Shown here: positions 596 to 38,597 of the stretch, piece after piece
Position numbering within the stretch: the first letter of the stretch is position 1
Layout: the number at the start of each line of letters is the position of its first letter
NCBI GenBank assembly: GCA_028686075.1
Contig: JAQUCT010000001.1
Location: 9,953 to 73,952, forward strand
Origin: Bacillota bacterium
Lineage (GTDB): Bacteria > Bacillota > Clostridia > Ch29
Length of the DNA stretch: 64,000 nt
Reading direction: 5' to 3'
The notes under the pieces: generated by a model
What the model saw: the letters and a program-made list of their open reading frames with translations, nothing else
Told to the model about the DNA's origin: nothing
The model's database searches: none
Translations under genes and position numbers: made by a program

Positions 596-2115
596 TTCTC
601 CTTCTTTTTGGCATTTATTTGTTCCTTCAAAGATTTACGGTCAATCTTGCCGTTGGTGGTTAATGGCATAACCTCCAGTACCTCAATTCTGTTTGGCAGC
701 ATATACCTGGGTAGCCTCTCCCTTAAGGTGGCGGCCACTTCCTTTTCGCTTGCCTCGCCCACAAAAAAGAGTACAATCTTTTTGCCTTCCTCGTCGTAAA
801 CGCAGCACGCGCTCTTAATGCCCTCTATCATGTTAACATTAACTTCAATCTCCCCCAGCTCCACGCGGTGACCCATATGCTTTATCTGGTGGTCCTTGCG
901 GGAGACAAATACCAGTTCTCCCCTGTCATTGTACCTGCCAAGGTCTCCGGTCCTGTAAATGTTCTCCGGGTAGGCATTGTTTAAGGGGTTTTGTACAAAA
1001 ACTTCGTACGTCTTGTCAAAGGCCTTGTAATAGCCCAGCGTAAGGGACGTACCCCTTACACAGATCTCTCCTAATTCGCCCCGGGCCGGGACCCTGTTGT
1101 TTTGGTCCAGAAGTATTATTTCGGTATTCTTAAAGGGCCTTCCTATAGGCAGCACCTCACCCTCCTCAAAGGGGCGGTCCACCTTAAAATAACAGCACAT
1201 TCCCGTTGCTTCGGTTGGCCCGTACAAATTTATAAACTGTGCATCCGGCAGTGCCCTTCGCCAGAGGTTGAACTGTTTTATCGGGAACACTTCGCTGCCA
1301 AAGGCTATGGTGCGTAAGCACTCCGGCTTTGTTTTGTCAAGGGTCCCCAAAGCGGATATCATGGTAAGGGCGGGCACCACCCAGCACACCGTATTTATTT
1401 GGTACCGGTTCAAAAACTCCACCAGCTTAACCGGGAACATGAAAAGGTTTTTGGGAATTATGTATGTCGTTGCTCCCGCCTTTATCGTCGAATACAGTTC
1501 TTTAAGGCTTGCATCAAAACAAAAGGGAGTCTGGTTACCAAATACGGTATTTTGGTCAACGCCTAGGACCTCCGACAGACTCTCTATGTAATCAATAACC
1601 GAACGGTGGCATGCCACCACGCCCTTAGGTATCCCAGTAGACCCGGATGTGTATATTACGTATATGGGGTCGGTGTCTATGGCAGTTTCCCGGATACGGC
1701 CAAGGGCATCCTCATCGATGCTTGTTACGACCATTTCGTCGTAAATATAAACCTCACCACCAAAATGGAAGGTATCCATAACTTTTTTTGACGCCTGGTC
1801 ACAGATAATCGCTCTGGGGTTTAGATTATTCAGTATAAGCTGTATACGGAAACGGGGCATCTCCTCTTCGATGGGCACGTAAAAGTCCCCCCCGTACACC
1901 ACTCCAAAAAACGCCGCCACAGCCTCGGGGCACTTGTTCATGAACACCACCACCGGCTGTTTGTATACACCCTTTTTGCTCAAAAAAGTGCCAATCGCCC
2001 TTGCCTGATTATAAACCTCTCTGAAGGTTATACCCGTGCTTTCGTTAGCGTAGGCAATTTTATCGGGAAACTCTTGAACCGTCCGTTCCAGGTATTCCAA
2101 TACGTTGTACTGCAT
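592..2115 (-). CDS. dltA: D-alanine--D-alanyl carrier protein ligase (AMP-binding adenylation enzyme, DltA-like)
   Basis: AMP-binding core motif YTSGSTGIPKGV plus TGD and K motifs; about 507 aa from ATG at 2115 (MQYNVLEYLERT...) preceded by GGAGG. The ORF-track N-terminal extension to 2292 lacks an RBS and is probably not translated. Confidence 0.85.
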   Translation of the reverse strand: MQYNVLEYLERTVQEFPDKIAYANESTGITFREVYNQARAIGTFLSKKGVYKQPVVVFMNKCPEAVAAFFGVVYGGDFYVPIEEEMPRFRIQLILNNLNPRAIICDQASKKVMDTFHFGGEVYIYDEMVVTSIDEDALGRIRETAIDTDPIYVIYTSGSTGIPKGVVACHRSVIDYIESLSEVLGVDQNTVFGNQTPFCFDASLKELYSTIKAGATTYIIPKNLFMFPVKLVEFLNRYQINTVCWVVPALTMISALGTLDKTKPECLRTIAFGSEVFPIKQFNLWRRALPDAQFINLYGPTEATGMCCYFKVDRPFEEGEVLPIGRPFKNTEIILLDQNNRVPARGELGEICVRGTSLTLGYYKAFDKTYEVFVQNPLNNAYPENIYRTGDLGRYNDRGELVFVSRKDHQIKHMGHRVELGEIEVNVNMIEGIKSACCVYDEEGKKIVLFFVGEASEKEVAATLRERLPRYMLPNRIEVLEVMPLTTNGKIDRKSLKEQINAKKKEK

Positions 2116-2206
2116 AGCTACCTCCTTGCTCCAGGGTTTATGGTACTGCGCGGGTACGGCCCATGCCGTCCGGCTTATCACGGCTTGCTTGTATTGCCTG
2201 GCATCC

Positions 2207-3451
2207 CTACTCGGTTGGCGTTGCCGGGTATTTTGTCCTGTCCCACACATGACTGTTGTTATGTTTTTCGGAGTATTTCTCCAGCTCAACATCGGTTAGC
2301 ATGAAGAAATCGCCGCCGCCCCTTCTGGGGGTTGTATCAAAATGGTACCATCCGTCGCCTAAGTTTACCAGGTTCCAGTAATGGCCTCCCCCGGTCTTTG
2401 CAATGCGCTGGTTTTCAATATCTGCCCTTGTAAGCAGTGCCTGGGCCGTTGAATAGTATATAAAGCAGTCTCCCCTCCGGTTCTTAATGCCCTGGTAAGC
2501 TGCGCTCACCCAGTCGCCCATGTCCGGATAGTTAACATAGCCTATCTGGTGTTTGGTCCAGTTGTATATCGCCCTGGCCTTTTCGAGTTGGGTCATGTCT
2601 TCGGATATTATGTCTTTAAGAACCTCATCCAGAAGTGGGTTCAATTCTTCTTTGTCCACGTAATCCTCTGTCTTTTGCGCCACCGTGAACGTAACGGTTT
2701 TGACCGTCGTGTTTCCGGACACATCCGCAGCGGTGTATATGACAGGATAGGAACCTTCTTTTTTTAGGTTTACGGCACTGCTGATAATGTCGAGCTTTAC
2801 ATGCTCGTCCATGTTGTCGGTAACCGAAACGTCCCGCCTGTAGGAAACCCTGTCGCCTATGTAAACGGTCTGGTCATGGGCACCTATTATCCTGGGCGGT
2901 TCATTATCCTCCAGAACCGTGAGCAGAGCATTTTGTTCGGTAATATTGCCGCCTTGGTCCTCCAAAAGCACCGCTATCTCCTGGATGCCTATCCTTTTAA
3001 AATCCGGCTCATTGGCAAAGGATACCGAGACCTCCGTTGAGTCAACAATATCGGTTACAAAGTCCCCGGCCTTGAGAACCCTTCCGGAGGGAACTGTCCT
3101 GTCTACGGGTCGGGCCAAAGGTGCGATGGTATCCGTAATCTCCAGTGTGGATTTATAGGTTCTGCCACCTACCCGCACTTCAATATTATAAACCCCGGGA
3201 ACATTCATATCAACCGTATTCGGGTCGGTAACGAAGTCGCCGGTAATATTTTCATCCCTAATAAACCGGGAAACGTCTGGTATGGGCTCTCCCGCCTCTA
3301 TTGTAACAGTATCATGCAATTTGTTAAGGGAAACCATCCCTGCCAAAACCCCTACCGCCACAAAGACAGCAAACAGTATCATAAGGTGTGCTAATTTAAC
3401 CCCATCCGCCCTTTCCTGCATACGGATTGCGCCCCCTTTTTCAAACCCCAT
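2207..3451 (-). CDS. Membrane-anchored transglutaminase-like cysteine protease domain protein with Ig-like repeats
   Basis: N-terminal TM helix (LMILFAVFVAVGVLAGMV), repeated beta-rich segments, and a C-terminal transglutaminase-like core (GDCF ... H ... D). Alternative start at 3421 (MQERADG). Confidence 0.65.
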   Translation of the reverse strand: MGFEKGGAIRMQERADGVKLAHLMILFAVFVAVGVLAGMVSLNKLHDTVTIEAGEPIPDVSRFIRDENITGDFVTDPNTVDMNVPGVYNIEVRVGGRTYKSTLEITDTIAPLARPVDRTVPSGRVLKAGDFVTDIVDSTEVSVSFANEPDFKRIGIQEIAVLLEDQGGNITEQNALLTVLEDNEPPRIIGAHDQTVYIGDRVSYRRDVSVTDNMDEHVKLDIISSAVNLKKEGSYPVIYTAADVSGNTTVKTVTFTVAQKTEDYVDKEELNPLLDEVLKDIISEDMTQLEKARAIYNWTKHQIGYVNYPDMGDWVSAAYQGIKNRRGDCFIYYSTAQALLTRADIENQRIAKTGGGHYWNLVNLGDGWYHFDTTPRRGGGDFFMLTDVELEKYSEKHNNSHVWDRTKYPATPTE

Positions 3452-3750
3452 GGTCGAAAAATAAGCTGCATGTCTTTGCAGCGTTTTAGACCTTTTTATG
3501 GAAACATTATTTATTACATATTAATACCAATAATAATTAATGTCAAGAGGTGCTTAGTCTGACAATACAATTAACGAATAGAACCATGAAACTCTGGCTG
3601 AAAAGGCTTTTGCATATCTTTTAATTTTTATGCAAAAATGGTGGAGTAAATAGGATAAAATAATTTACATCATAACAACTTATAGTAAAAAGGTGTTTTT
3701 ATACAGGTATCATTAATGCATTTGTTAGGCAAGACGACTTGCTGTACAGC

Positions 3751-4998
3751 TTACTTGTCCATATTCTTTGCGACATACAGCAATCGGTATGGGGGTGTTC
3801 CAGAAACCTTAATAGCACTTGTTCTGCTTGTCTCCCATACATCCCGTATCTTAAATGCATTTAACACATGATAGCCTAAACTGCTGAGTCTCTTTGTGAA
3901 TAAACCGGGATTAAAATATTCGATTGATTTGCTGGATACGTTAGGATGGATCTCTCTCAATGCATTTACATAAGTCTGGTTAGGCATGATTATTACTATC
4001 CCGTGGACACGGGCATTACTATTTAAATATGGTTTAATAAGTTCGGGTAAAAACGAATCCTCTGTTTCATTATGCTCGTTTGAATCTATGTAATCAACCC
4101 ATAAATCAATACTTTTTTTCTTGATAGGGTATTTGTCAGGCTTACACACAAGGAAAAGTGCTTTATGATTAAGGCCCTTTTTTTCGATTTGGGATTTATA
4201 AAACCTAATGACCTCCGGATATCTTTCCGCAATAATAAAATGGTTGTCCTCGTTAAAATATTCTATGTTTTTTAACAAGAAAAACCAGCGCTTAATATTA
4301 GTCTCAAGTATTACTTTATTATGATATTCTTTCTCGGACAGAAGATTTGATAATAGCTGTTTTTCATCTTGTTTCAATACGGTTATCGTCTTTGCATCAT
4401 ATTCTTCAAGAAGCGTATTAGATATATCGAATAATGTTGTATCGTAAATATGGGAAACCGGATCCACAAAAAGAATACCGTCTTGTATCTCAAGCCTATT
4501 CCCACAATTACATAATAATTCACCTGAAATAATCTCTCCGTTTTTAATTGTAGCACCTTTTATAACAAAATCACATTCACAGACAGGACAATTTAAAAGC
4601 TTCAAAAAAGTCAGGGGAATACCAGAAATATCTGTTGGATTACTACTAATATGCTTTGTTTCCAATATTATTTTCTTCAATCGGTCTATTGCTGTATCTA
4701 TACTGTTGCGCTGGGATACAAGGCTATTATATTTATTGCTCAGTAGTTTTACTACCTTTTTCGTTTCTCGCGGCATATTGCTGTACGAAACCCTTTCCAC
4801 TGATAAAATATCATGAATTTCCTTCAGACTAAAATACATATCTTTATAGCTTAATATCAATTTAAGCTCCTCAACATCTTTATCCGTAAAGTGATGGTGA
4901 TAGTTTTTTCGTTCAGGAACTAGAAGTCCTATCTCTATATAGTACCGAATAGTTGCAACAGAAAGACCCAGCAATTTTGAAACTTCACCTATTTTCAC
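3751..4998 (-). CDS. MerR-family HTH transcriptional regulator fused to a Cys4 zinc ribbon and an uncharacterised C-terminal domain
   Basis: N-terminal MerR HTH (KIGEVSKLLGLSVATIRYYIEIGLL), a coiled-coil segment, then CPVCEC...CNCGN zinc ribbon and about 250 aa of unknown domain. Probable start is GTG at 4998 (MKIGEV..., RBS GGTGA); the ORF track extends to 5019. The gene is very AT-rich. Confidence 0.6.
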   Translation of the reverse strand: MKIGEVSKLLGLSVATIRYYIEIGLLVPERKNYHHHFTDKDVEELKLILSYKDMYFSLKEIHDILSVERVSYSNMPRETKKVVKLLSNKYNSLVSQRNSIDTAIDRLKKIILETKHISSNPTDISGIPLTFLKLLNCPVCECDFVIKGATIKNGEIISGELLCNCGNRLEIQDGILFVDPVSHIYDTTLFDISNTLLEEYDAKTITVLKQDEKQLLSNLLSEKEYHNKVILETNIKRWFFLLKNIEYFNEDNHFIIAERYPEVIRFYKSQIEKKGLNHKALFLVCKPDKYPIKKKSIDLWVDYIDSNEHNETEDSFLPELIKPYLNSNARVHGIVIIMPNQTYVNALREIHPNVSSKSIEYFNPGLFTKRLSSLGYHVLNAFKIRDVWETSRTSAIKVSGTPPYRLLYVAKNMDK

Positions 4999-5393
4999 TA
5001 TATACTTCACCCCTTGCACAATTAATGTACGCTCTTGCCAACTTAGAGAGTTTCATAATAAATAAATATAGCCTGGGGTTAACATCTCAACCTTTTATGA
5101 TACCCTCTCACGCTTTCGCTTGCTGCATTCGCAACTCGCGATATGTATTATTATATCATAAAAATGAGCTCAATCCCAGCATTTATAAGGGTTTTGCCCC
5201 TGTTCAGCAAGCCCCTGCTTATAATACAAAACATTTCATGAAAAAGTAAAGTTAACTTGAGTTAAGTGGTAAGGATACCAATTTTACAGTATTGATCTCA
5301 AGCTGAGTTGTAAGTATATAATTCTAAGTAGGAGTAGTAGCAATTATCAATGTATAAGGTCAAAAATTATATTATGAGAGGAGACTAAGAATT

Positions 5394-6818
5394 ATGGGAA
5401 CTTTCTCGTCCGAGGCACTTTTGTTGATAATGTTAAGTACAGTTGTTGTTATCACAATCGGTGGTTTCATTGCAGTTTACTTTAAAAAAAAGACTGTGTC
5501 AAGTGAAGATTGGGCTATTGGTGGGAGAAAACTTCCGCCTTATGTAATCGTTTTTACACAGTTTGCAACTTTGGTTGGCGGAGGCGTACTCGTAGGTCAT
5601 GTTGGAATTGGGTATAATTTTGGACTTGCACCTATTATGTACGGTATATGTGGAGCTGCCGGGTGTTTTTTTATGGCGATCATAGCAAAATGGCTAAGGG
5701 AAAATGAATTTACTACTATTCCTGATATTTTGAAAAAGATTTATGGAGAAGATAACTTTTTATTGGTTTTTGCAGCTTTAATGGCAATGGTGGTTCCTTT
5801 TGGATGGATAGCCTCACAAATAACAGCATTTGGTAAATTGTATTCTTCAATAACCGGAATTGGTATGAATATTATTATTGTTGCTGTGGCATTAATATGT
5901 GTGTTGTTTACATTACCGTCAGGCTTTAACTCAGTTGCCTGGTCAGATTTTGTGTTTGGAGTTGTAATGTTAGGATTATGCGGCATAACAGCTTTCCAAG
6001 CAGTCCATATGGGAGGGGGATGGACTGATATAGTCAGTAACATACAGGACAAAACAATTATATCCTTTCCCGAAGGCCTTTTGTCTGCAGGCTTAACTAC
6101 AACGCTCCTCTGGTTTATTGCAGCAACTCCCGGAATGATGACAAACCAAATGACCCTGCAAAGAGTTTGTGCTGCAGACACAGTCAAAAATGCCCGAAGA
6201 ACATTAATAATCAGCGGAATTCTCATTGCCGCACTGGAAATTTGGGTTGTAGTTATGGGTGTATCTATCCGATCGTTAAATCCTGACTTGACAGGAGAGA
6301 TGGCGATGGGATGGTTTTTAACAACAATCCCTAAATGGACAGTCGCATTATTTGCAGGGTTTATTTCCACAACAATCATTACTACAGCCGATAGTGCTTT
6401 ACAGTCTGTTGCAGTGAATTTCACTCAAGATATCTATAAAAAACACATTAATGTGGGGGCATCAGACAAAAAATTGATGAGCGTTTCTCGAAAGGCAACG
6501 GTTATTGTAGCCATCTTGGCAATAATGTTGGCTATCGCCTTCCCAAGAGTGATGGACTTAATAATTGCCTCATATGCATATTCTGCGTCCGCATTACTTG
6601 TTCCCATTTATGCCGGCTATGCTTACAGCAAAAGAAGAACTCTTACGACAAAGGTGGGGAAGAACAGTATGATCGCGGGCCTTGTTGGATGTTTTATTGC
6701 TCAGATGCTGCACACTAGAATACCATATGCTATATATGGAATCCTAGTATCATATGTTGTTATGATAATAACAATAAAAGCTAATGAAAGTAAAAAACTC
6801 AGTACTGGAGGAAAATAA
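5394..6818 (+). CDS. Sodium:solute symporter (SSS family, PutP/PanF-like) transporter
   Basis: 474 aa, about 13 predicted TM helices, with the conserved SSS N-terminal region (DWAIGGRKLPPYV..., GGGVLVG). RBS GAGGAGA precedes ATG 5394. Confidence 0.8.
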   Translation: MGTFSSEALLLIMLSTVVVITIGGFIAVYFKKKTVSSEDWAIGGRKLPPYVIVFTQFATLVGGGVLVGHVGIGYNFGLAPIMYGICGAAGCFFMAIIAKWLRENEFTTIPDILKKIYGEDNFLLVFAALMAMVVPFGWIASQITAFGKLYSSITGIGMNIIIVAVALICVLFTLPSGFNSVAWSDFVFGVVMLGLCGITAFQAVHMGGGWTDIVSNIQDKTIISFPEGLLSAGLTTTLLWFIAATPGMMTNQMTLQRVCAADTVKNARRTLIISGILIAALEIWVVVMGVSIRSLNPDLTGEMAMGWFLTTIPKWTVALFAGFISTTIITTADSALQSVAVNFTQDIYKKHINVGASDKKLMSVSRKATVIVAILAIMLAIAFPRVMDLIIASYAYSASALLVPIYAGYAYSKRRTLTTKVGKNSMIAGLVGCFIAQMLHTRIPYAIYGILVSYVVMIITIKANESKKLSTGGK

Positions 6819-6819
6819 A

Positions 6820-7827
6820 ATGAAGACCATTCTATTGAGTGAAAAAGATATTAAAAAACTAATTACCATGCGAGAGGCTATTGATATTACCAACAAAACC
6901 TTTGCTGATTTGGGGAAAGGTAATACTCTCAACCCGACTAAGCTTAATCTTAATTTAGGTGACAGTGAACCTACTAAACTTCCCTATAAAGCGTCATTAA
7001 ACGCGATGCCTGCTTATATTGGATGGCAGGATATTGCAGGGATGAAATGGGCAGGGGGTTTCGGCAAAGGAAGGAAAGAAATTAATATGCCGTTTATCAA
7101 TGCCCTTATTTTGCTTGTCGAACCTAACTATGGTGACTTTCTTGCAGTAATGGACGGTACTTGGATAACTAAAGTGCGTACCGGAGCCCAGTCAGCGGCA
7201 ATACTCAGGTATTTATTAAAAGACAAGAAAAAAGCAACCTTTGGTATGTACGGTGCTGGGGTACAAGCCCGTACTCAGACCATGGCACTTACAAGTGAGT
7301 TCTATGTTGAAAAGCTGATTGTCTATGATCCAGTTTTAGAAGCAGCAAATAAGTTTAAGGAAGATATGAATAGTTATGTGCAAGGAGAGATAGTGATTGT
7401 GAATGAACCCAAAGATGTAGTGGAAAGTGATGCTTTCATATCCATAACTCCGGCTGACGATGCTTTTATTAAAGGAGAATGGTTATACAAGGGAAGTATT
7501 TATCTTGCCATGGGTTCGTACCAAGAATGTGATGATGTATGTATTTTAGATTCCGACATTATTATAGTTGACCACATCGGCCAGTGTCTGCATCGGGGGA
7601 ATCTCAAGAAACTCGCTGATCAAGGCAAGATTACAGAAAAAGACATATACTGCACGATCGGCGAACTTGCTGCAGGTTTAAAATCTGTCCAAAACTTAAA
7701 TGACAAAAAAACATTAATAGTCCCAATCGGTATGGGATGCCTAGATGTTGCAGTTGCGGCAGTTGCATATAGAAAAGCGTTGTCTTTAGGCGTGGGCAAT
7801 ACTTTTATGTTTGACCAAGTTGACTAG
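6820..7827 (+). CDS. Ornithine cyclodeaminase / mu-crystallin family NAD(P)-dependent enzyme
   Basis: OCD family signatures (TKVRTGA, Rossmann GMYGAGVQA); about 335 aa from ATG 6820 preceded by GGAGG. The ORF-track start at 6784 overlaps the transporter stop and is unlikely. Confidence 0.8.
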   Translation: MKTILLSEKDIKKLITMREAIDITNKTFADLGKGNTLNPTKLNLNLGDSEPTKLPYKASLNAMPAYIGWQDIAGMKWAGGFGKGRKEINMPFINALILLVEPNYGDFLAVMDGTWITKVRTGAQSAAILRYLLKDKKKATFGMYGAGVQARTQTMALTSEFYVEKLIVYDPVLEAANKFKEDMNSYVQGEIVIVNEPKDVVESDAFISITPADDAFIKGEWLYKGSIYLAMGSYQECDDVCILDSDIIIVDHIGQCLHRGNLKKLADQGKITEKDIYCTIGELAAGLKSVQNLNDKKTLIVPIGMGCLDVAVAAVAYRKALSLGVGNTFMFDQVD

Positions 7828-8098
7828 GAATAAGTTTTTTAATAGTCAGTTAGCCTTGTTAAGCTATGAAGGGTAATGACAAGCCCAGTTGCGGTTATTT
7901 AGAAATAAAGACCATACAGTAATGTGCTTTAAAGGGAGGCCCTAAGACGGAGAAAGATTTTACGCATTCGCTATAGTTGCGATGATTAAACTAGATGCGC
8001 AAAGTACTCAGAATCATTAAATCTTATATAAGGGCCATCCCTTTAAATGCACTGGCTTATGCCTTGTATGAATTCTAAAGGGAGTGGAGTGAATCTTT

Positions 8099-9172
8099 GT
8101 GGGTAAAATGATTTCAATTATTGGAGCAGGTAACGGCGGTCAAGCTTTTGCCGGATATTTGTCTTTGCAAGACTGGAAGGTTAAACTATATGACATATCA
8201 CAAGAAACAGTAGATATATTAAATAAAAAAGGCGGAATTCATATCGAAGGAAGTGCTAATGTAGAAGGTTTTGGAGAAATACTGCTTGCCAGCACCGATA
8301 TTGGTGAAGTAATTAACGGGACAAAAATAATTTTAGTTACTTTACCTTCTATATATCACAAAGAAATTGCCAGAAAAATAGCTCCATATCTAGTTGATGG
8401 GCAATTTATCATGCTCAATCCTTGTACTGCCCTCGGTGCCGTTGAATTTCGCAAAGAATTGAATGATTGTACTTGCACTGCTGATATACTTCTTGGGTGT
8501 ACATCTACTCTGTTGTTTGCCTGTCGTGCAATAGAAATAGGCCGTGTTATAGTTGCCGGGCAGAAAGCAAGCATTACTGCATCAACCTATCCTTCCTGCA
8601 ATAATGCTATTGCAGCTAAAATATTCAAAGATATAATTCCTCAGGCACAGTTTTGTGGTGACATAATACAAATTGGCCTTGATAATATTGGGGCATTGGT
8701 ACACCCCGGCCCAACCATTCTAAACACGGGCAGAATCGAATCGGGAACCGAGTTTGAATATTATTTGGATATTACTCCAACTCAAGGCTTGCTGGTTGAC
8801 AGATTGGATGAAGAACGAATGGCGATTGCCCGGGCATTTGGATTGACTGTAAAATCTTTGGTGGATATATATGAGGCATTATATCAAATTAAAGGAAAAA
8901 ATGTTTATGAAGTACTTACCGGCTGTGATGCATATAATGGTATCAAAGGGCCCACAACACTTCGTACACGTTATCTTCTGGAAGATGTGCCTTATGGTCT
9001 TTGCGCGTTTCAGACTTTGGGAATTATTGCAGGTGTACCAACTCCATGCATTGATGCATTAATTACACTGGCGAGAAAAATAATACCTGAAATGGAGGAA
9101 GGTAGAACCCCAGAAAATCTTGGACTGGAAGGCGTATCAAAAGAAGAGTTCATTAAATCATGCCGTTCCTAA
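8099..9172 (+). CDS. Opine dehydrogenase (NAD/NADP octopine/nopaline dehydrogenase family; N-(1-D-carboxyethyl)-L-norvaline dehydrogenase homologue)
   Basis: Collinear similarity to Arthrobacter opine dehydrogenase over the whole length (IIGAGNGGQAFAGYL, LNPCTALGAVEFRK, HPGPTILNTGRIESGTEFEYYLDITP, DEERMAIARAFGL, GIKGPTTLRTRYLLEDVPYGL, GVPTPCIDALI). GTG start at 8099 with GGAGTGGAG RBS; an alternative ATG lies at 8108. Confidence 0.85.
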   Translation: MGKMISIIGAGNGGQAFAGYLSLQDWKVKLYDISQETVDILNKKGGIHIEGSANVEGFGEILLASTDIGEVINGTKIILVTLPSIYHKEIARKIAPYLVDGQFIMLNPCTALGAVEFRKELNDCTCTADILLGCTSTLLFACRAIEIGRVIVAGQKASITASTYPSCNNAIAAKIFKDIIPQAQFCGDIIQIGLDNIGALVHPGPTILNTGRIESGTEFEYYLDITPTQGLLVDRLDEERMAIARAFGLTVKSLVDIYEALYQIKGKNVYEVLTGCDAYNGIKGPTTLRTRYLLEDVPYGLCAFQTLGIIAGVPTPCIDALITLARKIIPEMEEGRTPENLGLEGVSKEEFIKSCRS

Positions 9173-9368
9173 GAATGTGAAAACAATTTTTGGTGCACCT
9201 TAACGCAGGCCGGATGGAGCTGGCGAGGTGTAGTCCAATACTGGAATGGCAATTATTTCTGCAGATGGTTTTGTGAGATGCGTTAAGGGGTGACCGGTTT
9301 AAACCACCGGCAGACCTGTTCCAGAAGGATTAAATGCATTAAGATTCCCTTCCCCGCCGCCTGTGTCC

Positions 9369-10490
9369 TTAAAAACCCTCCGGCCTTAAGGTAAGAGCCA
9401 CTTTCTTATTTATTACCCTGCCGTCCCTTTTTAGAGATATATCGACCTTCCCTGGCCGGTCAATGCCAAACAGTATGCTCCTCATCTTTACCATTGAATC
9501 AACTGGCTGGCCGTCCAGTTCCAATATAATGTCCCCTTCCCTTATCCCGGCATCGCCAGCGGGAGTATTTTTGTGTACCTTAACTACGTATATTCCTTTT
9601 TGTATGTCAATATCGGTATTATAATAACCGGCTATTTCCCTGTCGTATCCGTCTATGCCCAGGTACATGGGACGGAAAAACCCCTTGTCCACAACCTGTT
9701 TTATTATAGGCTTTGCAATGTTTATGGGCACCGCAAAACCTATGCCCTCAGCGTCCGATGCCTTAGCTGAGTTTATACCAATAACCTGGCCCCTGGCGTT
9801 TAGCAGTGGCCCGCCGCTGTTGCCGGGGTTAATGGAAGCATCGGTCTGAAGCAAGTCCTCCATTATAACCTCCTGGGCTTCCGAGCCAACCGTAAGCGAC
9901 CTGTTCAGGGCACTAACCACGCCGGAGGTTACCGTCCTCTGGAACCTAAGCCCTAAGGGGCTGCCTATGGCTATCGCGATATCCCCGATAGCCACCTCGT
10001 CGGAATCCCCCAGCTCCGCTTTGGGCAACCCAACGGCGTCCACCCTTATTATAGCCAGGTCCAGGGCTGCGTCCTGCCACAGCACCACCGCAGACATTTC
10101 CTGCCCGTTTTCGAAGAGTACGTTAATCTCCCTTGCTTTGTTACCCACAACATGGTCGTTTGTAAGTATGTACCCGTCGGATTGGACAATAACCCCCGAA
10201 CCAATACCCCTTACCTCAGTGGGGTTGAATATCTCGTCTCTTTTTATCTCTACTGTAACGATTGAAACTACCGTTTCAATGTTCTTTTCCGCCACCGCCC
10301 TTACAATACCCGGGCTCTCTCCCTTCGGGTACACGATCCTGTCCGATTGCTGGCCGTCCCCCTGCCTCTCATACTGGATTGGCCTTTGCTGTACCCTTCC
10401 ACTCGTCCCTCCTATGGTCCCGCCCACAGCACCAGCTATCAACGCCACAATTATGTAGGGATATAACCTTGCATTCCATGCCTTTGACAT
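9369..10490 (-). CDS. htrA: HtrA/DegP-family trypsin-like serine protease with PDZ domain (YyxA-like)
   Basis: N-terminal TM, catalytic triad context (TNDHVV, D, GNSGGPLLN) and a C-terminal PDZ domain. The start overlaps the yycJ stop (TGATG). Confidence 0.85.
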   Translation of the reverse strand: MSKAWNARLYPYIIVALIAGAVGGTIGGTSGRVQQRPIQYERQGDGQQSDRIVYPKGESPGIVRAVAEKNIETVVSIVTVEIKRDEIFNPTEVRGIGSGVIVQSDGYILTNDHVVGNKAREINVLFENGQEMSAVVLWQDAALDLAIIRVDAVGLPKAELGDSDEVAIGDIAIAIGSPLGLRFQRTVTSGVVSALNRSLTVGSEAQEVIMEDLLQTDASINPGNSGGPLLNARGQVIGINSAKASDAEGIGFAVPINIAKPIIKQVVDKGFFRPMYLGIDGYDREIAGYYNTDIDIQKGIYVVKVHKNTPAGDAGIREGDIILELDGQPVDSMVKMRSILFGIDRPGKVDISLKRDGRVINKKVALTLRPEGF

Positions 10491-37555: not shown

Positions 37556-37572
37556 TAATATCCCTCCCTTTG

Positions 37573-37998
37573 CTAGAACGGCAGGTCCGAATCCTCTTCT
37601 ATAGGATAGAAGTCATCGTCGGAACCGTCCTTATCCCTATTGTATTCCTTGGATTCTCCGGCTCCACCGGTACCGGGCGCTTTATCGAGGAAAACAACCT
37701 CGTCCGCCACCACTTCGGTAATGGACCTTCTTTGACCACTGTCGTCCTCCCAGCTTCTTGTCTGTATCCTGCCCGTTACCCCTGCCAGTCTGCCCTTTCC
37801 GAGGTAAGTAGCGCACAACTCGGCCAGCTTTCTCCAGGTAACGATACGAATAAAATCCGTTTCCCTCTCGCCCTGCCTATTTTTATAGTTCCTACCCACG
37901 GCCAGCGTGAAGGTTGCTACCTGGGTACCGGTCCCCGGTGTAACACGCAATTCAGGGTCCCTTGTGAGTCTTCCCACAAGACATACTTTGTTCATCAT
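37573..37998 (-). CDS. ssb: Single-stranded DNA-binding protein
   Basis: OB-fold N-terminus [19 protein letters not shown], acidic C-terminal tail [15 protein letters not shown]; ATG 37998 with RBS AGGGTGGTGA. Confidence 0.92.
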
Positions 37999-38016
37999 TT
38001 TATTCACCACCCTGAT

Positions 38017-38301
38017 TTATTCATCCTCATTAACAATAAGATGTCTTATAACGCTCTCGGTAATCCTGAAAACCCTGGTAAGCTCTCTGGGAATTTCGTT
38101 CCCAGCCGTAAAGTTCATCTTTACGTAATAGCCTTCATTTTTCTTGTTGATTTCATAGGCAAGCTTCCTGGTACCCCATTCGTCAACAGCCTCTATTTCG
38201 CCGTCCTGCTGAACAATACCCTTAATCCTTTCGATAAAGGATTTCCTTGTCTCCTCTTCAAGCTCCGGGTCAAGAATGAAAAGCAATTCATATTTACTCA
38301 T
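38017..38301 (-). CDS. rpsF: 30S ribosomal protein S6
   Basis: MSKYELLFILDPELEEE... is the canonical S6 N-terminus; rpsF-ssb-rpsR operon order. Confidence 0.92.
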   Translation of the reverse strand: MSKYELLFILDPELEEETRKSFIERIKGIVQQDGEIEAVDEWGTRKLAYEINKKNEGYYVKMNFTAGNEIPRELTRVFRITESVIRHLIVNEDE

Positions 38302-38396
38302 CTGTTCACCTCCTTTTGGACTAACGGCCCTACAAACGGTAGAGCAAGGATGTACTATAGTATTCTACCACAGCGCATTTTTCAATGCAACAATAT

Positions 38397-38597
38397 TTAC
38401 CTTTCATCGGTGTCGGCTTTCAAGACCCTTTTGACCCTTTTTTCAAAAATCTCCCGGGGCATTAGAACCTGTCTTCCGCATTTTTGACATTTAATCCTTA
38501 TATCCATCCCGGTTCTTACCACCTCCCACAGGTCGTTCCCGCAGGGGTGCTTCTTTTTCATTTGGGCAACGTCTCCCAGTTCAATCCTAAGAGGCAT
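38397..38597 (-). CDS. DUF951 family small protein (YyzM-like)
   Basis: 66 aa with a CxxxxxW...CxxCGR zinc-ribbon-like pattern; conserved neighbour of rpsF in Firmicutes. Confidence 0.6.
   Translation of the reverse strand: MPLRIELGDVAQMKKKHPCGNDLWEVVRTGMDIRIKCQKCGRQVLMPREIFEKRVKRVLKADTDER

Follow-up and report, generated by a model that had tools for sequence, protein, structure and literature searches.

A 64,000-nucleotide stretch of DNA from a clostridial Bacillota bacterium (GTDB lineage Ch29; contig JAQUCT010000001.1 of assembly GCA_028686075.1; hereafter the window) raises the question of how four AT-rich accessory genes came to stand next to htrA in an otherwise core region of the genome, and of what they do there. 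The genes encode a MerR-type regulator, a transporter of the sodium:solute symporter (SSS) family, an enzyme of the ornithine cyclodeaminase (OCD)/mu-crystallin family, and a protein of the opine dehydrogenase (ODH) family. A preliminary description of the window had presented them as a self-contained metabolic block at 3452-9368, acquired horizontally, either long ago or without leaving a scar. We found that they lie on a 5,678-bp foreign segment that has a short direct repeat at its ends and no mobility genes, and that is present in this species but absent from the same site in its sister species. The block is a horizontally acquired small genomic islet of an ordinary, known kind, and both its atypical composition and the empty site in the closest relative bear out the proposed horizontal gain. 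The explanation as a whole, i.e., the gain of a foreign segment together with the mechanism and function inferred below, is in our view probable.

Relatives were collected by an HtrA scan with one genome per GTDB species, which gave four of them (L008 to L011). The closest, L008, has an HtrA that is 87% identical at the amino acid level and flanks that are 84-86% identical to the window at the nucleotide level. Its gene order is walRK-yycHI-murA-yycJ-htrA-rlmH-transglutaminase-like-dltA-like, and all four block genes are missing, so that the expected adjacency of the dlt-like and htrA flanks is found there directly. In both L008 and L023, which represent the sister species, the DNA matching window positions 624-3552 abuts that matching 9227-9341, position 3552 being joined to 9227-9231. 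Since the flanks are contiguous in the sister, the foreign DNA is that at 3553-9230; the block reported earlier is real, but by the sister alignment its interval takes in native DNA at both ends, 100 bp at the left and 138 bp at the right. Likewise, the site between the dlt-like cluster and htrA was correctly named, but the immediate neighbors were rlmH, now a stump, and the transglutaminase-like gene upstream of the dlt-like genes. In the more distant relatives L009 to L011, htrA-rlmH is followed by unrelated genes, and the block is absent there too. On the other hand, all six independent assemblies with an identical HtrA (two metagenome-assembled genomes [MAGs] from NCBI, two from ENA, one from JGI, and one from Logan) carry the block at >99.9% identity and with the same junctions (6/6). 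When metagenomes were scanned for the exact pattern of the predicted empty junction, only the sister species came back, and no block-free strain of the same species. The features that define the insert and its borders are as follows.

3553..9230: inserted DNA, 5678 bp, GC 37.6%, drawn from the contiguous flanks in L008/L023 and from composition; the 6-nt repeat leaves the exact ends ambiguous
3547..3568: left junction repeat, GAGGTG (3547-3552, on the native side) followed by the first 16 nt of the insert, CTTAGTCTGACAATAC; from the sister empty-site alignment
9225..9241: right junction repeat, GAGGTG (the last 6 nt of the insert as drawn) followed by native TAGTCCAATAC; from the sister empty-site alignment
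3452..3552, minus strand: native region upstream of the transglutaminase-like gene, 84% identical to the sister up to 3552
9283..9342, minus strand: rlmH remnant, the last 18-19 codons and the stop

The hexamer GAGGTG stands at both ends of the insert, and the sister has a single GGGGTG at this place. In addition, CTTAGTCTGACAATAC holds a gapped copy of the right-flank 11-mer TAGTCCAATAC, which occurs in random 16-mers of the island's composition at a rate of 3e-4. The ends of the insert therefore carry a direct-repeat scar, either of 6 nt and perfect or of 17 nt with two small gaps (p about 3e-4), whereas the preliminary description had considered a mechanism that leaves none. The insertion point is about 50 nt downstream of the rlmH stop and 6 nt upstream of TTGACA (3546-3541), which a promoter scan picked as the promoter-like -35 element of the transglutaminase-like gene. 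It is a neutral spot, with a gene end on one side and a promoter on the other. A terminator-like hairpin with a T-run (3465-3482, minus strand), kept in the sister species, was also seen between this promoter-like site (3546-3518) and the transglutaminase-like start codon (3451), and it may be a leader or attenuator of that gene.

Consistent with the empty site, every measure of composition set the block apart, and the reported AT-richness was confirmed. The GC content of the insert is 0.376, compared with 0.477 and 0.463 in its flanks; in 1-kb windows it is 33-41% in the block and 43-55% across most of the remaining window. The GC content at third codon positions (GC3) is 0.27-0.36 in the four block genes and 0.42-0.61 in every other called gene of the window. 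The strand-symmetrised tetranucleotide distance reached a z of 10.4 in the block and was at most 3.2 elsewhere, making the block the sole strong outlier in the 64 kb. By an index resembling the codon adaptation index (CAI) and derived from the window's other 46 genes, the block genes rank second to fifth lowest of 50 (z -2.4 to -4.0). The lowest codon-adaptation value in the window belongs to a 305-aa open reading frame (ORF) at 37570-38487 (plus strand), which has no Pfam match and is perhaps a spurious gene call.

Outside the block, the window consists of core, origin-proximal DNA, with dnaA-dnaN-recF-gyrB (57-64 kb), rnpA, dnaD/dnaI-like genes, walRK-yycHI-murA-yycJ-htrA, and peptidases. 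The origin, oriC, is placed near 57 kb by the cumulative GC-skew minimum and dnaA, and the insert lies about 48 kb from dnaA. The SSS-OCD-ODH operon (5394-9172) is head-on to replication, unlike most genes on that arm.

The right border had been credited with a long inverted repeat at 9173-9368. The best arms that we found in 9150-9400 with 6-nt seeds were 10 nt and perfect (9198-9207 / 9279-9288) or 14 nt at 86%, and the 196-nt region folds no better than its dinucleotide shuffles (fold z -0.40 and +0.33 on the two strands). The 10-nt arms, moreover, straddle the junction, with one arm on the insert side and one on the native side. With such short arms, a shuffle-level fold, and arms split across the junction, the repeat was rejected as a feature. 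The region is in fact composite: its first 58 nt belong to the insert, the next 50 nt or so are native intergenic DNA, and the 3′ end of rlmH, the gene of the 23S rRNA pseudouridine methyltransferase, follows. The sister RlmH, used as a tblastn query, matched window positions 9342-9289 with 83% identity over 18 aa. The window and the same-species contigs have lost the remaining 430-460 bp of rlmH together with its start codon, and no second copy was found within the 64-kb window. The gene is intact directly 3′ of htrA in all four relatives (11131-11649 in L008) and also in L023. Its loss could belong to the same rearrangement as the insertion or could be a separate deletion. The last 35 nt of the insert also hold ACCTTAACGCAGGCCGGATGG (9197-9217), an imperfect inverted copy of the htrA 3′ end CCCTCCGGCCTTAAGGT (9376-9392), and this likeness could be chance or a trace of rearrangement.

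All four genes within the insert are intact and are of the kinds originally described. They and the two non-coding features between them are listed below.

3751..5019, minus strand: long MerR-family regulator, 422 aa (Pfam MerR_1, PF13411, 6.8e-17)
5292..5322, plus strand: candidate MerR-type promoter of the SSS-OCD(-ODH) operon, TTGATC-N19-TATAAT with a CTCA(AGC)TGAG dyad in the spacer
5394..6818, plus strand: SSS family transporter, 474 aa (Pfam SSF, 2.7e-32)
6820..7827, plus strand: OCD/mu-crystallin family NAD(P) enzyme, 335 aa (Pfam, 4.4e-42)
7924..8052, plus strand: imperfect hairpin with a stem of about 20 bp (fold z -2.1; inverted repeat 7928-7942 / 8033-8047)
8099..9172, plus strand: NAD(P)-dependent ODH family protein, 357 aa (Pfam Octopine_DH, PF02317, 3e-40)

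As to where the DNA came from, the best non-self homologues of the ODH and the OCD-family protein are 65% and 75% identical, respectively, and lie on contigs of 33-35% GC. The closest SSS-OCD pair, in L022, shows 66% and 75% amino acid identity and 69% nucleotide identity on a 35%-GC contig, and the closest ODHs (64-65% identical) are in L012 on a 33%-GC contig. The low GC of these contigs points to low-GC Clostridia as the source; no close donor was found in the databases searched. A phage origin was rejected, with no phage DNA match, as was a plasmid origin, the single match being a 65% identical homologous cassette in Vescimonas that is not a donor.

The related loci differ in which parts they combine. 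A MerR gene divergent from SSS-OCD genes, arranged as in the window but with no ODH, is carried by the 142-kb Vescimonas fastidiosa plasmid pMM35_02 (38%, 57%, and 68% amino acid identity), and a long MerR gene divergent from an OCD gene, again with no ODH, is found in L020/L021 (36% and 66%) and L024 (48% and 72%). SSS-OCD-ODH cassettes occur in L016 to L018 and in L022. The symporters of the L016/L022 cassettes are 66-68% identical to that of the window, and the ODHs of these cassettes are only 36-40% identical to the window ODH. The gap between the OCD and ODH genes is 271 nt in the window versus 15 nt in L016. In Petroclostridium, the order is ODH-DctQM-OCD-OCD-DctP-serine dehydratase-GntR. 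The ODHs adjoining this OCD subfamily fall in three clades, represented by the window, by L016/L019, and by L022. By these comparisons, the conserved core is MerR plus OCD, usually with a transporter, and ODHs of the three clades have been recruited beside it independently. The block itself is a mosaic of a MerR-SSS-OCD trio and an ODH of another clade, the 271-nt OCD-ODH spacer being the seam between the two parts. It is thus self-contained, as had been proposed, but composite, with a trio that recurs without the ODH and an ODH from a different clade.

The hairpin at 7924-8052 sits in this spacer (7828-8098) and has no Rfam match. It may act in processing or stability, or it may mark a seam of recombination. 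L022 carries a different hairpin at the same OCD-ODH position (1919-2081), also with a stem of about 20 bp and no Rfam match, and it does not align with that of the window.

How the segment entered is suggested mainly by its ends. As the preliminary description had stated, there is no integrase, transposase, or tRNA in the block or at its borders. No mobility domain was found in the four ORFs and no coding remnants of an integrase or transposase in the spacers, and Rfam searches at the gathering threshold over the 64 kb and at E<=1 over 3400-9420 gave only one tRNA-Lys, at 27.5 kb. Terminal inverted repeats were not found, and the non-coding ends of the island match same-species contigs only. 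In lacking an integrase, a transposase, and a tRNA/tmRNA target, the block differs from classical islands. It shares an atypical composition, a precise empty site, and a short direct repeat with the small islets without mobility genes that arise by illegitimate or homology-facilitated recombination, from which it shows no notable difference; it is a typical example. We suggest that the DNA came from a low-GC Clostridia donor not yet sampled and was brought in by a single recombination, either illegitimate or guided by microhomology, or else by a recombinase supplied in trans. In that donor, the four genes had probably already come together, to be moved in one transfer, as a single junction-repeat pair bounds four equally low-GC genes. 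The insertion post-dates the split from a sister whose flanks are 84-86% identical, and the GC3 of the block has not drifted to that of the host; the acquisition is therefore not old relative to the lineage, contrary to one of the possibilities that had been raised.

Several points weigh against this account. With no donor, integrase, transposase, or tRNA found, the entry mechanism is deduced from the short repeat; the direction of the event, a gain, rests on composition, one sister, and three outgroups with a differing downstream context; and all of the genomes involved are MAGs or metagenome contigs. The last point would allow the low-GC block to be an assembly or binning chimera that is not physically linked to htrA, which we regard as extremely improbable, as six independent assemblies span one or both junctions with identical sequence. 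A different history is that the block was ancestral to this species and its sister, and that the sister deleted it via the short direct repeats, leaving one copy. Such a deletion would yield an identical picture of full and empty sites, and the three outgroups, with their different gene orders downstream of rlmH, do not strictly polarise the event. However, no relative carries the block, its best non-self homologues are 65-75% identical whereas host genes are 78-93% identical to those of the sister, and, with a GC3 0.2 below that of every host gene, the block would be a recent arrival even so. We consider a deletion in the sister very unlikely; it would alter the timing alone and leave the foreign origin unaffected. 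A gain of the segment by this species accordingly remains the explanation adopted here.

The regulator comprises a MerR helix-turn-helix (HTH), a long coiled-coil helix, a CxxC...CxC zinc ribbon, and a class-I methyltransferase-like domain. The helix is predicted at residues 83-126 with a predicted local distance difference test (pLDDT) score of >90, and the whole AlphaFold2 model has a pLDDT of 91. A word-indexed search with the whole protein was saturated on the HTH and gave 3 hits, and the C-terminal 293 aa (residues 130-422) served instead as the query of an exhaustive HMMER search. It returned 339 representatives of clusters defined at 50% identity, nearly all of 400-420 aa and with the same layout. 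Across the family, Cys144, Cys147, and Cys170 of the zinc ribbon are invariant and Cys172 is nearly so. A profile search gave a Trm112-like match for the regulator, and its relatives have weak matches to Trm112p and Methyltransf_25/11/31. In a Foldseek search with the model, the top matches were all methyltransferases (RlmA(I), MitM, and RebM; E about 1e-8, probability 1.00). The best was RlmA(I) 1P91 (E 8e-9, about 10% identity), an enzyme with a zinc domain-plus-methyltransferase layout like that of the regulator.

The glycine-rich motif I of such enzymes (E/DxGxGxG) is replaced in this family by a stretch of the type LETN(I/L)NxYFF, which reads LETNIKRWFF in the window protein. Motif I is lost in the window regulator and in 34 of 35 relatives, P0286 alone keeping LELGSGRG. 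With the glycine loop that binds S-adenosylmethionine (SAM) gone, we did not accept the C-terminal domain as an active SAM-dependent methyltransferase, and its modelled fold is read as a putative non-catalytic ligand sensor. The protein shares the N-terminal MerR HTH, the long dimerisation helix, and a 19-bp-spacer promoter with a dyad with BmrR, TipAL, EcmrR, and CueR, activators of the MerR family that carry C-terminal effector domains; it differs from them in its effector part, a zinc ribbon and a class-I methyltransferase fold without the glycine-rich SAM loop. No description of a MerR protein with a methyltransferase-like sensor was found in the literature searched.

The predicted promoter at 5292-5322 has a geometry that fits a MerR activator, since these work on promoters with 19-20-bp spacers, as stated in PMC8113463. 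A 19-nt-spacer promoter was the best operon-facing match in 4/4 independent homologous divergent regions with a long-MerR homologue, i.e., those of the window, L026 (about 6793-6823), L021 (about 2726-2756), and L024 (intergenic 340-492), with per-locus shuffle probabilities of 0.055, <0.0005, <0.0005, and 0.025 over the four loci.

The nearest named families of the symporter are PanF and PutP, both far below the NCBIfam cut-off. The OCD gene begins 1 nt past the SSS stop, an alternative ATG at 6784 being less likely. Its product matched three structures in the PDB, 1OMO (Archaeoglobus fulgidus alanine dehydrogenase, 3.8e-41), 6T3E (Delta1-pyrroline-2-carboxylate [Pyr2C] reductase, 1.6e-38), and 4M54 (SbnB, 4e-25), with a full-length family match common to all. 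By sequence, it is closer to the archaeal alanine dehydrogenase (AlaDH) and Pyr2C reductase than to proven cyclodeaminases. It scored under all NCBIfam equivalog cut-offs, the best being that of archaeal AlaDH, at 182 bits where 409 are needed, and we therefore name it only as a member of the family and not as an OCD, AlaDH, or Pyr2C reductase. An ornithine cyclodeaminase proper (EC 4.3.1.12) was rejected, with all NCBIfam OCD models far below cut-off.

The ODH has an IIGAGNGG motif (GxGxxG) in its N-terminal Rossmann domain (NAD_Gly3P_dh_N, 7e-07) and aligns over its full length (E 3e-73) with 1BG6, the N-(1-D-carboxyethyl)-L-norvaline dehydrogenase (CENDH) of Arthrobacter sp. 1C. The two proteins have the length (357 versus 359 aa), the Rossmann GxGxxG, and the Octopine_DH helical domain in common. 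At the positions of CENDH His202, Arg292, and Asp297, the window protein likewise has H, R, and D, which we take to be the catalytic and carboxylate-binding residues of the CENDH and octopine dehydrogenase type. The window protein differs as a distant paralogue from an anaerobic Clostridia lineage, whose gene shares its operon with those of a transporter and an OCD-family enzyme. In the clade tree, the clade of the window ODH is usually found elsewhere as tandem ODH-ODH pairs with an SSS or tripartite ATP-independent periplasmic (TRAP) transporter and a GntR/FCD regulator, such as those in L012, L013, and L014 (the last from Oscillibacter), all from gut and digester anaerobes. This combination of tandem ODHs, transporter, and GntR/FCD regulator is an uncharacterised recurrent module.

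Taken together, the gene content suggests that the block probably serves the regulated uptake and NAD(P)-linked catabolism of an amino-acid-like compound, and the recurrence of its MerR, SSS, OCD, and ODH parts together in unrelated anaerobes supports a functional unit. That the substrate is specifically of the opine type is a more tentative proposal, to which we give somewhat less than an even chance. An inducer bound by the methyltransferase-like domain of the regulator would activate the 19-bp-spacer promoter, and the SSS protein would import the substrate with Na+. By oxidative cleavage of an N-(1-carboxyalkyl)-amino acid, the ODH would then yield a 2-oxo acid and an amino acid. An amino or imino acid, either released in this step or co-imported, would be deaminated or oxidised by the OCD-family enzyme, and the 2-oxo acids and ammonia would enter fermentation.

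Known opine systems offer a partial likeness. The occ/noc regions of the Agrobacterium Ti plasmid combine an ATP-binding cassette (ABC) transporter, the flavin opine oxidase OoxAB/NoxAB, an arginase, an ornithine cyclodeaminase, and a LysR regulator. The block shares their logic, in that it is a mobile regulated unit joining uptake, a secondary-amine-cleaving enzyme, and an OCD-family enzyme. The parts differ: the transporter is of the SSS and not the ABC type, an NAD(P) enzyme of the Octopine_DH family stands where occ/noc have a flavin oxidase, the regulator is of the MerR and not the LysR type, an arginase is missing, and the host is a Gram-positive anaerobe that carries the genes on its chromosome. 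An opine catabolic operon of the Agrobacterium type was thus rejected on gene content, which lacks the ABC transporter, the flavin oxidase, and the LysR regulator. Synthesis of a metallophore of the staphylopine/pseudopaline type (Cnt) was also rejected, with no CntL-type gene among the four ORFs or in the flanks. For background on opine catabolism by the Ti plasmid, see PMC4575208. Nothing specific on a catabolic module of an ODH and an OCD-family enzyme was found in the literature searched.

Two considerations tell against the functional model as drawn. The ODH-less trio (Vescimonas, L020, and L024) shows that the OCD-family enzyme can act on an imported substrate with no ODH present, which weakens the opine part of the model; and substrate, cofactor, and direction are predictions, made for a pathway whose OCD-family protein is below every NCBIfam equivalog cut-off. 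The same observations suit a plainer scheme, in which the substrate would be an ordinary amino or imino acid (alanine, ornithine, proline, or pipecolate) that the SSS protein imports and the OCD-family enzyme deaminates, cyclodeaminates, or oxidises, the ODH having been added later, in a role that is loosely related or redundant. MerR and OCD, with or without SSS, form the conserved core, the ODH is missing in Vescimonas, L020/21, and L024, that of the window is from another clade and set off by the 271-nt seam, and the nearest named relatives are PutP/PanF for the symporter and AlaDH/Pyr2C reductase for the OCD-family protein. However, the recruitment of ODHs of three clades beside this OCD subfamily argues for a real metabolic coupling, and we rate a plain substrate as possible but rather unlikely. 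Less likely still, and in our judgment improbable, is a reductive electron sink, in which the OCD/AlaDH-like enzyme would form alanine from pyruvate and NH3 and the ODH would join alanine and pyruvate into an opine of the alanopine type. In its favor are the reversibility of both NAD(P)H enzyme families, a host from an anaerobe-type Clostridia lineage, archaeal AlaDH as the best named match of the OCD-family protein, and the role of opine dehydrogenases as terminal glycolytic enzymes in the anaerobic muscle of invertebrates. On the other hand, an importer-type SSS and a ligand-sensing activator fit catabolism better, and the relatives of the ODH are usually paired with TRAP/SSS uptake and GntR/FCD regulators. 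Regulated uptake and catabolism thus stays the preferred function.

A bolder version of this catabolic reading is that the regulator, the OCD subfamily, and the interchangeable ODHs make up an undescribed and widespread pathway of strict anaerobes that takes up and cleaves N-carboxyalkyl amino acids; we think this unlikely. Its hosts may be Clostridia, Oscillospiraceae, and Synergistota of digesters and guts, and its substrates, speculatively, Maillard products such as carboxymethyl- or carboxyethyl-lysine. Oscillibacter and Cloacibacillus are mentioned as anaerobic degraders of carboxymethyl-lysine in PMC9501902, and the link is drawn only because relatives of the ODH occur in these taxa. In the literature searched, no genes assigned to this degradation were found, nor anything specific on an opine dehydrogenase acting on carboxymethyl compounds in the gut. 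If this pathway is real, the regulator would exemplify a new class of MerR sensors that have a dead methyltransferase as their base.

As a genome feature, the islet is mainly of use in that both of its junctions can be read to the base. The enzyme pair and the regulator recur in many uncultured and gut anaerobes, which makes them a lead beyond one islet, and the regulator family, with about 340 clusters, has a sensor architecture that is undescribed and a promoter prediction that is clear. If the substrate is of the opine type, the block would provide a defined gene set for the turnover of secondary-amine dicarboxylates in anaerobic communities.

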